From IMG/VR virus record IMGVR_UViG_3300046314_000711: DNA of 64,000 bases. One strand, written 5' to 3'. Position 1 is the first letter of the stretch. Every line of letters begins with the position of its first letter. Shown here one piece after another: positions 10,232 to 20,002 of the stretch. Below the pieces are notes generated by a model. The model was not told the DNA's origin and made no database searches. It worked only from the letters and a program-made list of their open reading frames with translations. A program made the position numbers and the translations under genes. The stretch is from a virus.

Positions 10232-10612
10232 TTATCCTTGTTCAGCTATATATTTAGCTATTGTTTCGGTCGAGGCATCCCCAGTAGAACAAACAAAATA
10301 ACCAGATGACTAAAATATACAATTCTTCCAAAAATGTTTTCTCAGTTCGGAGCTGTGTAAGAACCAAACTTTTGCAGTAGTCGTTTGTTTCAATAATCTG
10401 ACAATTTGTGAAACTGACACATTTGGCGAGTAATCAACCAGTAAATGGATATGATCTTTGTCCACTTCCATTACTTGTATTTTGAAATCGGCTGTTTGAT
10501 TTGTTAGTATTGTATCTTTGATGGTCTGTATTAGTTGTGGCTTAGACAGAAGTTTCTTTCTATACTTGACGCAGAACACAATATGGCTTTTGAGTGTAGC
10601 TTTTCTCCCCAT
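10232..10612 (-). pseudogene. tnpA: Y1 HUH transposase TnpA interrupted by an in-frame TAG
   Basis: HIVFCVKYRK, DHIHLL; F-TAG-SSGYFVCSTG...IAKYIAEQG continues in frame past the stop at 10310-12. Confidence 0.85.
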
Positions 10613-10681
10613 TTTGATGGTATATTTTCAATTTTGTATAAATATATTTATGTCAATCAAATCAACTGCATAAATAATAGT

Positions 10682-11956
10682 ATGAAACAGCTGCTCGCTT
10701 ACAAATATAGGATTTACCCAACAGAAGACCAACAAATCCTTCTGAGTAAAACCTTTGGCTGTAAACGGGTAATATTCAACCATTACCTAAATGTGCAACA
10801 AACAAATTTCAAGAACAAAGAAAAGCACCTGAGCAACTATGACATCAATAGAGACATTACTAAACTGAAGGATGAGAAGGACTGGTTACGGGAAGTAGAT
10901 TCTATTGCATTGCAGATGGCAGCAGAAGACCTATCGTTGGCATATGACAATTTCTTCAAATCAACTACTGGTAAGAGAAAGGGTCCGAAGATAGCGGCTC
11001 CTAAGTTCAAAACCAAGAATTCTCGGCAGTCGTATAGAACTCGTGGGGTTCGTATCAATGAAAATGGTTCTTTACAAATACCAAAACTAAAAGCAGTAGA
11101 AGCAGTCATCCATAGAGAAATTCCAGGTGATTCGACAATCAAATCAACAACCATATCAAAGAATACGGATGGAAGATATTACGCATCGATTTTAGTTGAA
11201 ACAGAAGTAGCATTAAAGCCAACGACTGGTAGAGAAGTTGGTTGCGATGTGGGTCTAAAAGATTTACTCATCACTTCAGATGGGATAAAATTCAAAAGAC
11301 CGAATGATTTGCTAAACATTGTGAAAACAAAACAATTGTTGAAGGCAAAACAAAAGCAGTTTGCAAGAACTGATAAAGGCAGTGAAAATCATGAATCAAT
11401 TCGACTCCAAGTAGCAAGATTGTACTCAAAGATCACAAGACAACGAAATGAATATTATCATCTAGTATCAAACTACTTAGTCGATAATTATGATTCCATC
11501 TACGTTGAAGATTTGTCGAGTAAGAATATGCTACAAAACAGGAAGTTGAGTAGAGCAATTCACGAGGCAGCATGGGCCACACTGACTGGAATGATTTCAT
11601 ACAAATCAAATCAGGCAGGTAGGACATATCATCGAATTAGTAGATGGTATCCGAGCAGTAAGACTTGTAGTTCATGCAATTACAAACTTGAAAAGCTCGA
11701 TCTTGGAACCCGAGAATGGACTTGTCCTAACTGTGGAGTCTTTCACGATCGGGATCTAAATGCAGCAAAGAATATACTTCGTGTTGGTCAGATTGACTGC
11801 TACGAAGAGGTAATAGAGTCGCAAGCAACAGGCGATTTGGAATTAAAAATTCCATTGGCCCTACAGAAAATGACTAGTAAAATCGAGAGATCTGGCATAT
11901 GCTTGTCAGTTGGTTATGGGAGTGGGCAAGCTGCACGATCTTTAGTCGTGCAGTAG
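10682..11956 (+). CDS. tnpB: RNA-guided endonuclease TnpB
   Basis: AYKYRIYP N-terminus; RuvC motifs GCDVG, YVEDL, DRDLNAA; CxxC...CxxC zinc finger. Confidence 0.95.
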   Translation: MKQLLAYKYRIYPTEDQQILLSKTFGCKRVIFNHYLNVQQTNFKNKEKHLSNYDINRDITKLKDEKDWLREVDSIALQMAAEDLSLAYDNFFKSTTGKRKGPKIAAPKFKTKNSRQSYRTRGVRINENGSLQIPKLKAVEAVIHREIPGDSTIKSTTISKNTDGRYYASILVETEVALKPTTGREVGCDVGLKDLLITSDGIKFKRPNDLLNIVKTKQLLKAKQKQFARTDKGSENHESIRLQVARLYSKITRQRNEYYHLVSNYLVDNYDSIYVEDLSSKNMLQNRKLSRAIHEAAWATLTGMISYKSNQAGRTYHRISRWYPSSKTCSSCNYKLEKLDLGTREWTCPNCGVFHDRDLNAAKNILRVGQIDCYEEVIESQATGDLELKIPLALQKMTSKIERSGICLSVGYGSGQAARSLVVQ

Positions 11957-13586: not shown

Positions 13587-13660
13587 GCAGGCATGGTGTA
13601 AAAGAAACTCATAACTTTGCCAAAGTTAAGTCCCCGGAGCATTACCGGGTGCCTGCTCCA
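13587..13660 (+). tRNA. tRNA-Gly(GCC)
   Basis: GCAGGCA/TGCCTGC-TCCA; TAACT-TTGCCAA-AGTTA. Confidence 0.75.
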
Positions 13661-13686: not shown

Positions 13687-13760
13687 CGCGCAGTAGGGAA
13701 GTAGCTATCCCACCTGGCTCATAACCACGGAGGTCGCTGGTGCAAATCCAGCCTGCGCAT
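13687..13760 (+). tRNA. tRNA-Met(CAT), initiator-like, no encoded CCA
   Basis: C1:A72 mismatch; CTCATAA loop; GCTGG-TGCAAAT-CCAGC; embedded in a longer flanking stem. Confidence 0.65.
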
Positions 13761-13778
13761 CTATGCATACTTACAAAA

Positions 13779-13886
13779 AGGGGTAGGTTCAGCAACCTTA
13801 AAATATGGCTGAAGTCAATGGGCTTGCCCAACGATCTCAAACTGGAGTTGTTGCCCAGTTAAAACAAGCAGCTAACAACTACCCCG
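13779..13886 (+). ncRNA. CAGCMA-scaffold RNA (same family as 18044-18379)
   Basis: GGGGTAG-GTTCAGCAA...CTACCCC-GTT. Confidence 0.55.
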
Positions 13887-13943: not shown

Positions 13944-14026
13944 TCACCAGTAGAGGAATTGGTAAACTCACCTGACTGTTAATCAGACGCTTAATTGCAC
14001 TGTTGGTTCGAAGCCAACCTGGTGAG
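13944..14026 (+). tRNA. tRNA-Asn(GTT) with long variable region, no encoded CCA
   Basis: TCACCAG/CTGGTGA-G; CTGA-CTGTTAA-TCAG; GTTGG-TTCGAAG-CCAAC. Confidence 0.75.
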
Positions 14027-17868: not shown

Positions 17869-18024
17869 ATGAAACCAACCAAAACTTTCAAGCTCAGCAA
17901 AACGACCAAACGTATGATGTCAACTCTAACCAACGCAGAAGCGCGCAATGAATTTAAAAGAATTATGATCCAGGGGCAACTCGCTGCTCAGGTTGTAATC
18001 AAAAAAGAAAAAGCAGATAAGTAA
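17869..18024 (+). CDS. Small basic hypothetical protein (51 aa)
   Basis: AAAGGT RBS; MKPTKTFKLSKTTKRMM... Confidence 0.6.
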   Translation: MKPTKTFKLSKTTKRMMSTLTNAEARNEFKRIMIQGQLAAQVVIKKEKADK

Positions 18025-18043: not shown

Positions 18044-18379
18044 AGGGGTGGATCCAGCAACATAAATTAAAATGGACTGATAGTTTGATAATTTCCAGCT
18101 TGTCTGGAAACTCGACTAGATATGTGCCTGTCCAGACATGACAGAGATATGGCAGAGAATGGTAGGCTCTGCATGAAAAAAACAAGCACACTGAAAAGTG
18201 TAAAGAATTGCTAAAACAATTTGCATCGACCGCACCACCCCGTTAGTTATTTTAGGGAAGCTTGCAGCCAACTTTATACACTAGACTTTTAATCTAACCC
18301 GTAAAAAGGCTTCCCGTTTAATTTTAGGGTTACTTCCAGCCACCATCTTCATTTGTACTGAAAATAAAACAGTAACCCG
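18044..18379 (+). ncRNA. Three tandem CAGCMA-scaffold RNAs upstream of the Ro60-like gene
   Basis: Units 18044-18242, 18254-18316, 18326-18379; each AGGG-stem, CAGC(A/C)A, payload, stem'-CCCG. Confidence 0.65.
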
Positions 18380-18403: not shown

Positions 18404-19837
18404 ATGACAACAGCAACATTTGCACACGCAGTTTTAACTCAACCAACTACAACAACCAATGGCATGAAAGCATTCGCTGGCACTGGTAACGCTTGTGTTC
18501 AACTTTTCTATGCGATCGGTGCGATGCGTGGTAAAGACGTTATTCCATTGTTTAAAGCAGCCTATGCAGAAAACATGGAAATTGCACTGCGAATCGCACA
18601 ATGGAGCCGTGACATTCGTGGTGGAGCAGGAGAGCGTCAAATTTTCAAAGATATTCTTGCTCACTTGGAAATTACGAATCAAGATCAGCAAGTACGAGCA
18701 CTAATCGATAAGATTCCAGAAATTGGGCGTGCTGATGATATGTTGATCAATTGGAAGACAGTGGGGGTTCGTAACTATGCATTTACTGTATATGGGGAAC
18801 AACTTCGCAACGGTAATGGACTATTCTACAAATTCCTACCTCGTGAAAAAAGCGCAAAGAAGCGTCTCGCAGCAGAACTCCGTTCATTCTTCGGATTGAC
18901 TCCTCGTCAGTACCGTAAGCTGGCTTCTGCTAATACTACTGTTACCGAAACACAGATGTGTGCGAAGGATTGGGATAACATCAACTTTAGCCACGTGCCT
19001 TCTGTTGCTGCCTCACGTTACAAAAAAGCATTTAAAAGAAATGCTCCCGTTGTGTTTACTGAATATGTTGAAAAACTGACCAAAGGCGATCCGTCCGTAA
19101 AGGTAAACTCAAGCGCAATCTTCCCGTACACAGTGATCAAAGGCTGGCATTCTTCTCGCATTGATCCAACGATTCGTGCTCATGTGAATGCACAGTGGGC
19201 AGCACTACCAAACTACGTAGGTAATGCGAGTATCTTGCCATTAGTTGATGTATCTGGTTCGATGAATTGCCCAGCTGGTGGAGACACTTCAGTGACTTGC
19301 CACGATGTTGCACTATCACTCGGTCTGTACCTGTCTGAAAAGAATACTGGTAAGTTTAAAGATATGTTCCTGACGTTCTCCGAAGATCCTGAACTACTGC
19401 ACCTAACTGGTGACGTGATGGATCGTTTGGAAACAATGGATCGTAGCAAATGGGACATGAGCACTGACATTGTCAAGGCACTTGCTAAGATTTTGGAAGT
19501 CGCTGTTGCTGGTAACGTACCTCAAGGTGAAATGCCAGAAATCTTGTGTGTGATGTCCGACATGCAATTCAATGAGGCAGCAGAGGCAAACGATAGTGCG
19601 ATGGAAAGCGTGCGAACTCAATATGCTGCAGCCAACTACACATGCCCAAAGTTGGTGTGGTGGAATCTAAATCACAAAGGTAACGTACCTGTGACAGCCA
19701 ATGAGCAGGGCGCAGCACTTGTATCGGGGTTTAGCCCAGCGATTGTAGCAAGCATTCTGAGTGCGGATCCAGATGATTTCACACCATATGCATTAATGAT
19801 CAAATCCGTCTGTGTACCGCGATATGATGTGAAATAA
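18404..19837 (+). CDS. Ro60/TROVE-like (DUF2828-type) protein with VWA domain
   Basis: TTTNG, RDIRGGAGER, VDVSGSM (MIDAS), SDMQF, WNL, LVSGFS motifs. Confidence 0.85.
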   Translation: MTTATFAHAVLTQPTTTTNGMKAFAGTGNACVQLFYAIGAMRGKDVIPLFKAAYAENMEIALRIAQWSRDIRGGAGERQIFKDILAHLEITNQDQQVRALIDKIPEIGRADDMLINWKTVGVRNYAFTVYGEQLRNGNGLFYKFLPREKSAKKRLAAELRSFFGLTPRQYRKLASANTTVTETQMCAKDWDNINFSHVPSVAASRYKKAFKRNAPVVFTEYVEKLTKGDPSVKVNSSAIFPYTVIKGWHSSRIDPTIRAHVNAQWAALPNYVGNASILPLVDVSGSMNCPAGGDTSVTCHDVALSLGLYLSEKNTGKFKDMFLTFSEDPELLHLTGDVMDRLETMDRSKWDMSTDIVKALAKILEVAVAGNVPQGEMPEILCVMSDMQFNEAAEANDSAMESVRTQYAAANYTCPKLVWWNLNHKGNVPVTANEQGAALVSGFSPAIVASILSADPDDFTPYALMIKSVCVPRYDVK

Positions 19838-19865: not shown

Positions 19866-19973
19866 GGGACTCTAGCATAATTGGTAGTGCTGGGAACTCT
19901 TACGGAGCATCTGCACAAGCGGGTGTTCAAAATAATTCCTAAGGCCTCGGTTCGAACCCGGGGGGTCCCACCA
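19866..19973 (+). ncRNA. tRNA-Lys(CTT)-like RNA with 32-nt hairpin insert in the anticodon loop
   Basis: GGGACTC/GGGTCCC-ACCA; GGGAA-CTCTTA[insert]A-TTCCT; CTCGG-TTCGAAC-CCGGG. Confidence 0.7.
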
Positions 19974-19978
19974 AGTTA

Positions 19979-20002
19979 AAAGGCTCCAATTGGAGCCTTT
20001 TC
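19979..20002. terminator. Bidirectional intrinsic terminator
   Basis: AAAAGGCTCC-AATT-GGAGCCTTTT between convergent units. Confidence 0.8.

Follow-up and report, generated by a model that had tools for sequence, protein, structure and literature searches.

Does the Ro60-like gene of a large freshwater phage come with small RNAs of its own, and what would such RNAs do? The question is raised by a 64,000-nucleotide (nt) stretch of DNA from the viral record IMGVR_UViG_3300046314_000711 (hereafter the window), in which three tandem units precede a gene for a Ro60-like protein and a fourth copy lies upstream among transfer RNA (tRNA) genes. Judged from sequence, these four elements almost certainly belong to a real, transcribed family of structured RNAs, which recurs beside relatives of the same gene in other viruses. 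Our overall reading, which we consider probable, is that they are Y-RNA-like small RNAs of a Ro60-fold protein, working in tRNA conflict.

Four units of one build precede or accompany the Ro-like gene

The preliminary description of this DNA had reported three tandem units directly upstream of the Ro-like gene and a fourth copy elsewhere, and all four lie on the + strand exactly where it placed them. Each is closed by a terminal helix (P1) of 7-9 base pairs (bp), encloses a variable body and carries a G directly after the 3′ strand of the helix (4 of 4 units). The sequence CAGCAA or CAGCCA starts exactly 10 nt (+10) from the first paired G in all four (at 18055, 18265, 18337 and 13790). We refer to P1 together with this motif as the handle. 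The units, with their minimum free energy (MFE) of folding where given, and the gene are as follows.

18045..18242, + strand: unit 1, long handle RNA of about 198 nt; MFE -54.2, z -3.6; P1 GGGGTGG (18045-18051) with CCACCCC (18235-18241); CAGCAA at 18055-18060; 3′ G at 18242
18255..18316, + strand: unit 2, short handle RNA; P1 GGGAAGC(TT) (18255-18263) with (AG)GCTTCCC (18307-18315), one G-U pair included; CAGCCA at 18265-18270; second helix (P2) at about 18273-18279 with 18301-18307; anticodon-like hairpin TAGA-CUUUUAA-UCUA at 18282-18296, loop CUUUUAA, 'anticodon' UUU at 18288-18290
18327..18379, + strand: unit 3, short handle RNA; P1 GGGTTACT (18327-18334) with AGTAACCC (18371-18378); CAGCCA at 18337-18342; anticodon-like hairpin TTCA-TTTGTAC-TGAA at 18348-18362, loop UUUGUAC, UGU at 18354-18356
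13780..13886, + strand: unit 4, mid-size handle RNA of 107 nt; MFE -33.5, z -2.5; P1 GGGGTAG (13780-13786) with CTACCCC (13879-13885); CAGCAA at 13790-13795
18404..19837, + strand: gene for the Ro60-like protein, 477 amino acids (aa); Pfam DUF2828 and DUF7788

The end of unit 3 lies 24 nt from the start codon of the Ro-like gene. Both hairpins that had been described earlier, TAGA-CTTTTAA-TCTA in unit 2 and TTCA-TTTGTAC-TGAA in unit 3, are present letter for letter. The body of unit 1 holds several hairpins, one of them D-arm-like (GCAGAG-AATGGTAGG-CTCTGC), and three of its internal hairpins show compensatory changes between the window and its closest relative, the viral locus L030.

A script that sought the compound motif (GGG; a stem of at least 6-7 bp with a downstream complement; CAGC[AC]A right after the 5′ strand; a span below 260 nt) returned 13780-13885, 18045-18241, 18255-18315 and 18327-18378 on the + strand of the window and nothing else; there was no match on the - strand, and shuffled versions of the window gave a mean of 0.19 matches (200 shuffles). 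For the short motif alone, searched as YCAGCMAC, the window showed no enrichment (10 matches, where 8 were expected), and the signal therefore lies in the compound architecture. All four units also folded more stably than their shuffles (z -2.2 to -3.6).

The product of the neighbouring gene has the Ro60 fold but belongs to another sequence family

The gene beside the units had been called TROVE- or Ro60-like, and structure comparison bears this out. Searches with the window protein by sequence gave no match to Pfam TROVE (PF05731), only DUF2828 and DUF7788, and nothing in the PDB by sequence or by profile. An AlphaFold (AF2) model built from 29 homologues (predicted local distance difference test score, pLDDT, 77.9; predicted template modelling score, pTM, 0.75) consists of a helical TROVE-like ring followed by a vWA domain. 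The 13 best Foldseek matches to this model were all Ro60 (Thermus phage phiLo, Deinococcus Rsr, Xenopus and human), over the full length and with E 2e-7 to 9e-5. VIA-align likewise ranked ten Ro60 entries best (Z 12.9-16.7 with every solved Ro60, root-mean-square deviation 4.6-6.0, 375-405 residues aligned), and proteins with a vWA domain only came next, at Z of 10.3 or below. The metal-ion-dependent adhesion site motif D282-x-S284-x-S286 (DxSxS) is invariant in the alignment of the window protein with its homologues. On the strength of the predicted model, the window protein shares the fold of Ro60 and stands in a sequence family of its own.

Homologues occur in at least 708 cultured phage records, and mycobacteriophage genome curators already label some of them 'Ro-like RNA binding protein'. 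Matches in the ESM Atlas were to DUF2828 virus clusters only, and a comparison with E. coli genomes gave no match at the DNA level. On the contig of locus L141 (G005), the Ro-like gene lies in two pieces about 1.1 kb apart (114278-116802), for which an intron, an intein or an inserted gene is possible.

Handle units track the Ro-like gene across viral loci

Eighty viral loci that encode relatives of the window protein (48-78% identity) were scanned for the same build. An initial scan gave 192 units on the strand of the gene and 13 on the opposite strand. A scan with relaxed stems was uninformative (538 matches against 470 on the other strand) and was replaced by a stricter definition, in which P1 has 7 bp, the first two pairs are Watson-Crick, C-N-G-C-A stands at +9 to +11 and a 3′ G follows. 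This refined scan returned 284 units on the strand of the gene and 7 on the other. Only five loci had no unit, all of them with less than 100 nt of upstream DNA, and every other locus had at least one. The unit end lay no more than 60 nt from the start codon in 58 of 71 loci and no more than 600 nt from it in 66 of 71, and 169 of 276 units stood within the 600 nt upstream of the gene. Co-occurrence with DUF2828 genes had been proposed earlier as a check on these elements, and the strand bias together with the 58 close placements supports it.

The units follow the consensus UU-AGGAUnnn-nn-CAGCAA ... nnnAUCCU-GUU, with the flanks UUAG... and ...CUGUU conserved. The first P1 pair, A-U in the consensus, has become G-C in the lineage of the window. 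CAGCAA is the main form of the motif (150 of 220), CAGCAU, CCGCAA and others also being present; the CAGCCA form of the window is a rare variant within the family.

The association also holds in reverse. A handle-only pattern run over viral sequences matched at least 120 stretches, 119 of those listed being new, and among these matches 38 of the 119 new loci hold a Ro-like gene within the fetched stretch. Ten long contigs among the matches listed lack a local gene, and eight of them hold it elsewhere on the contig; the remaining two comprise one false match in GC-rich coding DNA, from a phage without tRNAs, and one real unit on a contig that is 71% complete.

Covariation supports a conserved RNA structure

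To the 27 short units with an anticodon-like arm we fitted a hand-drawn four-helix rod (P1, a bulge with the 5′ motif, P2 and the hairpin). RNAalifold, applied to MAFFT alignments, had recovered the outer stem only, because gaps misplace the inner helices; the hand-drawn structure was therefore scored with controls. Paired cells made up 84.1% of the total, against 68.5% in shuffled units. The covariation score was 0.393, against 0.127 when shuffled, a value that none of 500 shuffles reached; it fell to 0.01-0.09 when partners were slid by 1-3 columns. Double changes occurred in 14 of the 18 pairs, with G-U pairs on the + strand, and a single hairpin pair appears as UA in 10 units, AU in 9, CG in 5 and GC in 1.

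A covariance model, R1, was built solely from these 27 freshwater metagenome units; such a model had been suggested at the outset as a check. R1 recovers units of cultured phages, as described below, as well as unit 3, which is absent from the model (23.9 bits, E 0.0014); unit 2, which is among its own sequences, scores 72.3 bits. Scanned over the window, R1 gave no further short unit. Rfam contained no family that reached its gathering score for the units of the window and of 12 further loci.

Units recur in cultured phages, and in three lineages a handle encloses the start of the gene itself

A unit lies beside the Ro-like gene, on its strand, in six cultured phage lineages. Three units stand upstream of the gene in Listeria phage P100plus (R1 E 4e-7 and 2e-5) and two in Campylobacter phage NCTC12673 (E 3e-7), three lie directly downstream of it in Mycobacterium phage MiniMac (E 5e-7), and four are found in the array after the gene in each of the E. 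coli phages SUSP1 (E about 1e-4, three matches) and Bas63 (E 1e-6 to 7e-5), one unit in each of these sets being a permuted tRNA-like unit. Matches of R1 in cultured phages ranged from E 3e-7 to 2e-4 and fell on the strand of the gene every time. Units of Sinorhizobium phage phiM12 and Vibrio phage KVP40 were found by pattern scan and gave no R1 match at E up to 1. R1 found nothing in the T4 tRNA cluster, rnaC and rnaD included, and no clear handle appeared at distances of up to 6 kb from the gene of Salmonella phage Munch.

Bas63 gp130 and the window protein are 36% identical over residues 6-474 (E 4e-83). The four handle RNAs of this phage are unannotated and lie among tRNA genes, at MZ501086 82072-82138, 82239-82296, 82694-82761 and 82781-82906. 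Small hypothetical coding sequences (CDSs) overlap handle RNAs in SUSP1 (AVU07_agp138, L082 7856-8026), in MiniMac (gp58, L209 5637-5780) and in Bas63 (bas63_0137 and bas63_0138, L212 22749-23023); these four are probably not genes.

In three lineages a handle encloses the Shine-Dalgarno sequence and the ATG of the Ro-like gene itself (L030 1475-1535; L064/L065 2705-2768; KVP40, locus L081, 4969-5008), and the stems over the gene start differ in sequence between lineages. A handle over the own ribosome-binding site (RBS) and start codon is the layout expected where an RNA-binding protein shuts down its own synthesis, and this arrangement of sequence suggests that the Ro-like protein may repress its own translation.

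An RNA ligase gene lies no more than 1.5 kb from the Ro-like gene in P100plus (RtcB-type, L208 6818-8029) and in Munch (L083 4425-5633). In bacteria, rsr and rtcB are gene neighbours, an arrangement echoed by an RNA ligase beside a phage Ro-like gene.

The interior is variable and often carries an anticodon-like loop

By length, the units form three groups: short ones of 45-70 nt, middle ones of 85-125 nt and long ones of up to about 260 nt. Long units have P1 and the handle motif alone in common. The bodies enclosed by middle units resemble tRNAs, with their parts in normal order but no acceptor end, or permuted (T arm, closed acceptor hairpin, D arm), and some of these units are partial or complete Rfam tRNA matches. 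Of 101 short units, 64 contain a hairpin whose stem has 4 bp or more and whose loop has 7 nt; U33 and R37 are present as well in 48 (47.5%). Shuffled interiors of short units gave 18% and 2.8%, respectively. A larger collection of 620 distinct units includes 290 short ones, of which 153 carry a loop of the U33/R37 type.

The 'anticodons' of these loops are uneven: UUU occurs 39 times, UGU 24, UGA 15, UCU 14, GGA 10 and UGG 8, and GUA, GUU and GCA 5-6 times each. UUU, UGU, UGA and UCU lie far above their own share among 2793 phage tRNA genes, and loops of the Glu, Ala, Val, Gly, His and Leu types were absent from the 153, though such tRNAs are equally common among the 2793. The loop is the same as that of a real tRNA in 77% of cases, against 61% in a weak control with independently drawn positions. 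The loop of unit 2 is that of 75 of the 76 tRNA-Lys(UUU) genes of related phages; the loop of unit 3 has U33, UGU and A37, yet an unusual C38, and as a whole is common to one tRNA-Thr only.

The same scaffold carries different anticodons across phages (UUU, UGU, UCU, GCU or GUU). Between orthologues, the unit of L030 that corresponds to unit 2 has a Ser GCU loop in place of the Lys UUU loop of the window, within near-identical flanks. The units do not have the hallmarks of a tRNA (acceptor stem, discriminator, CCA, D and T arms), the short ones having an anticodon-like arm only, and neither ARAGORN nor the Rfam tRNA model called units 1-4.

Genomic surroundings of the units

The remaining features of the transcription unit are the following.

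17869-18024: open reading frame (ORF) of 51 aa, immediately before unit 1; its C-terminal part is kept before the orthologous unit in L030; no Pfam match
19866..19973, + strand: odd tRNA-like gene with CCA encoded; Rfam tRNA 44.6 bits; a 32-34-nt hairpin inside the anticodon loop; not called by ARAGORN
19978..20001, + strand: hairpin resembling an intrinsic terminator, with a T run

The terminator-like hairpin closes a unit that consists of the small ORF, units 1-3, the Ro-like gene and the co-transcribed tRNA-like gene. A second tRNA-like gene (45.2 bits) lies at 6366-6468, and 41 nt are inserted into its anticodon arm; a handle sought inside these two tRNA-like genes gave nothing convincing. 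Unit 4 stands within a tRNA cluster, between tRNA-Met (13687-13760) and tRNA-Asn (13944-14026), and near it, at 13587-13657, is a tRNA with anticodon GCC (Rfam 40.8 bits) that ARAGORN misses.

Downstream of these features come genes for the gp32-like, RecA/UvsX-like, clamp-loader-like and helicase proteins of a large T4-like phage; the window also codes for NAD-ligase, NUDIX, YqeY and TnpB. The TnpB / IS605 OrfB-type gene (Cas12f-like TNB domain), at 10535-11956, lies inside the tRNA and small-RNA region. In L030 (780-1480), the orthologue of unit 3 is interrupted by about 650 nt just after its 5′ stem; the insert, which may be a mobile one, holds a minus-strand ORF of 213 aa (794-1435) that matches nothing in Pfam.

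A proposed role in tRNA conflict and its alternatives

These observations allow us to propose how the elements might work. The four elements would be small non-coding RNA genes of a Y-RNA-like family, each RNA being closed by the 7-9-bp end helix, followed by 2-3 unpaired nt and CAGCAA at a fixed distance, with a G(UU) tail. The handle would be the constant part and the interior a swappable module. Excised from tRNA-array and operon transcripts, the RNAs would dock the neighbouring DUF2828 protein through P1 and CAGCAA, in parallel to the way in which Ro60 holds Y RNAs. In units 2 and 3 the module would be a rod tipped by a tRNA-like anticodon loop (Lys UUU, Thr UGU), and in relatives a tRNA body without its acceptor end, a YrlA-like permuted domain or an unrelated structure. 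The resulting ribonucleoprotein (RNP) may act in the tRNA conflict between phage and host, which is the least certain step, with the module as bait or tether for proteins that read anticodon arms, such as anticodon nucleases and repair or modification enzymes.

By analogy with Ro60, the handle RNAs are likely to be partners of the Ro-like protein, and binding is the best reading because of the reverse search, the deep conservation and the handles over the start of the gene itself. That the anticodon arms act as bait or decoy is speculative; the idea is favoured by the identity of loops with those of tRNAs, the excess of Lys UUU, the turnover of anticodons between orthologues, the anti-defence role of one family member and the RNA ligase genes nearby in P100plus and Munch. 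The preliminary description had proposed a distinct Y-RNA-like class that presents anticodon decoys on an Ro-like protein. Of this, a conserved RNA family linked to a Ro60-fold gene, with anticodon-like hairpins in many members, stands; presentation on the protein draws on synteny and on the analogy with Ro60 and Y RNAs.

Several observations weigh against our reading. Many units lie kilobases from the gene, and since the gene sits within tRNA arrays, the linkage could partly reflect a shared location. Roughly every second short unit lacks a tRNA-like loop. Where there is one, the loop alone is imitated and not the tRNA arm: the hairpin stems are generic and AU-rich, sharing 7-11 of 17 positions with the tRNA of the same anticodon at the locus, and AU-richness may bias the 'anticodons'. 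The hairpin stems of units 2 and 3 have four Watson-Crick pairs each, flanked by a C/A mismatch. The protein gp130 of Bas63, a Ro60-like protein of an E. coli Felixounavirus, counters the Ppl defence alone, whether supplied from a plasmid or from T7 (PMC11482910); its anti-Ppl activity therefore needs no phage RNA. Last, the motif CAGC(A/C)A at +10 is neither the GNCGAA nor the GGUCCGA of Y RNAs, and the Rfam Y_RNA and YrlA models gave no match in the window at E up to 10 or in its relatives at E up to 1. The same two points uphold the earlier claim that the class is distinct from known Y RNAs.

The units could instead be processing or punctuation hairpins of tRNA-array transcripts (sites for RNase III, E or P) that have nothing to do with the Ro-like protein, as their interspersion with tRNA genes, the leader-trailer-like stems around complete tRNA-like bodies in some of them and the conserved UUAG... 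and ...CUGUU flanks would fit. A single-stranded CAGCAA at fixed register is, however, foreign to known RNase III, E and P sites, and adjacency to the gene is kept although the arrays differ, upstream in Listeria, Campylobacter and freshwater phages and downstream in MiniMac, SUSP1 and Bas63; the handles that wrap the start of the gene in three lineages and the lack of any in the T4 tRNA array also speak against this account, which we judge rather unlikely. Handles over the RBS and ATG in L030, L064/L065 and KVP40, and the position of units 1-3 in the transcription unit of the gene and directly before it, are equally what would be seen if the gene-adjoining units were mainly cis-acting operators in the 5′ untranslated region, serving translation of the Ro-like protein itself, and not free RNAs. 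This explanation leaves aside unit 4, 4.5 kb upstream among tRNAs, and the downstream units of MiniMac, SUSP1 and Bas63, and an operator has no need of diverse, covarying modules that imitate tRNA; we regard it as unlikely.

Two further accounts appear very improbable. The short units might be minimal 'armless' tRNAs or tRNA fragments used in decoding, given canonical 7-nt loops with U33 and R37, the same as in real tRNAs, and tRNA genes all around; yet the short class lacks an acceptor end, discriminator, CCA, T arm and D arm, has the handle motif in the place of the D arm, shares its scaffold with bodies that are not tRNA-like and is called by neither ARAGORN nor the Rfam tRNA model. A cassette-like array with swappable interiors, and the L030 insertion that splits a unit 3 orthologue, would also suit repeats at the DNA level (recombination or homing sites, mobile cassettes) that are not RNAs at all. 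Against these stand the strand bias of 284 to 7, the location of units inside a terminated operon, compensatory changes that keep pairing and not sequence, and G-U pairs on the transcribed strand only. Two candidates were dropped: retron non-coding RNA (inverted repeats with an AGC branch motif), given multiple tandem copies, linkage to the Ro-like gene and no reverse transcriptase among the 28 window ORFs scanned against Pfam, and attP-like tRNA gene fragments, which are at odds with the high copy number, the covariation and the bias for one strand.

If the handle RNAs are partners of the Ro-like protein, the principle known from Ro60 and Y RNAs would hold for a second family of proteins, one that recognizes another motif. 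Carriers of DUF2828 include phages that serve as models or matter for therapy, namely KVP40, relatives of Felix O1, Listeria P100 and phages of Campylobacter, Staphylococcus and Enterococcus, and naming probable partner RNAs gives a testable RNA component to a protein family with one known anti-defence member. Handle RNAs would also account for gaps that annotation leaves in phage tRNA arrays and for some small CDSs called there in error. Were the anticodon arms indeed baits, they would represent a new kind of phage counter-defence against tRNA-cutting immunity, an idea that can be tested directly with Bas63 on E. coli K-12.

Comparison with known systems

Our literature search turned up nothing published on DUF2828 of phages, the CAGCAA handle or decoys made of anticodon arms, and TROVE proteins receive no more than a passing mention in surveys of jumbo phages (PMC7824862). 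The closest parallel is Ro60 with its Y RNAs. Ro60 contacts mainly a 5′-strand motif by the terminal stem, GGUCCGA in animals or GNCGAA (GNCGAAN0-1G) in bacteria, and Y RNAs are tRNA mimics encoded no more than 4 kb from the Ro60 gene on the same strand (PMC4201824). The Ro60 of Thermus phage phiLo binds two upstream Y-like RNAs (Yrl1/Yrl2) with a CGAA motif and recruits the host polynucleotide phosphorylase (PNPase) (PMC12135203). As in these systems (YrlA/YrlB of bacteria and mycobacteriophages, Yrl1/Yrl2), a TROVE-like ring and vWA protein is accompanied by several adjoining small RNAs on the same strand, which have a 5′/3′ terminal stem followed by a conserved 5′-strand motif and a variable second module that imitates tRNA; some window relatives even share the permuted order of YrlA (T arm, closed acceptor, D arm). 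In contrast to Ro60, the protein belongs to the DUF2828/DUF7788 family and matches neither Pfam TROVE nor solved structures by sequence. Unlike Y RNAs, the units can reach six or more copies per locus and spread through giant tRNA arrays, and many of their modules are bare anticodon arms with changing anticodons, of which we found none described for Y RNAs.

Phages answer anticodon nucleases in other ways: T4 Pnk and Rnl1 repair the tRNA-Lys cut by PrrC, and phage tRNAs replace or resist cut host tRNAs, as T5 tRNA does against PARIS. The Lys(UUU) loop, the most frequent in units, and the RNA-repair genes nearby in some phages recall such answers. Whereas those systems repair or replace whole tRNAs, handle RNAs imitate the loop only, on a protein-docking scaffold.

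A further likeness is to the dictyostelid Class I RNAs (RF01414), which are 42-65 nt long with a 6-bp terminal stem and a variable remainder, and carry beside the 5′ strand an 11-nt motif that ends in ...C..CAA, with T3, C6, C9, A10 and A11 invariant (PMC7919456). The handle units resemble these RNAs in the short terminal stem, the single-stranded motif, whose CAGCAA core agrees, and the variable remainder, with C in place of the invariant A10 of the motif in units 2 and 3. RF01414 is the only non-tRNA family with end-to-end matches to units (SUSP1 7904-7960, 26.9 bits; L011 3408-3464, 26.4 bits), both below its gathering score of 41.5 bits, and it gave no match to the window units at E up to 10. 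Class I RNAs are moreover eukaryotic and have their own promoters, their known direct binder being the RRM protein Rnp1A (PMC7919456). The likeness is real in architecture, any homology being conjectural. A bolder picture, which we hold to be rather doubtful, would be a programmable display system in large phages of many families, in which a Ro60-like ring protein docks a library of handle RNAs that trap, sense or redirect host enzymes that cut or read anticodon loops. Each RNA would present its own part of a tRNA, in many cases just an anticodon loop with an 'anticodon' that varies among related phages, and the Class I likeness would then point to DUF2828-type proteins and handle RNAs as an ancient class of RNP shared by viruses and eukaryotes.

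The one relative with a tested function is gp130 of Bas63, a homologue of the window protein. That Y RNAs might be among the tRNA genes annotated nearby was no more than a guess by the authors of the PhageMaP preprint (PMC11482910). As in the window, the Ro-like gene of Bas63 stands at the head of a tRNA array, and this array contains the four unannotated handle RNAs, two of them overlapping small hypothetical CDSs.

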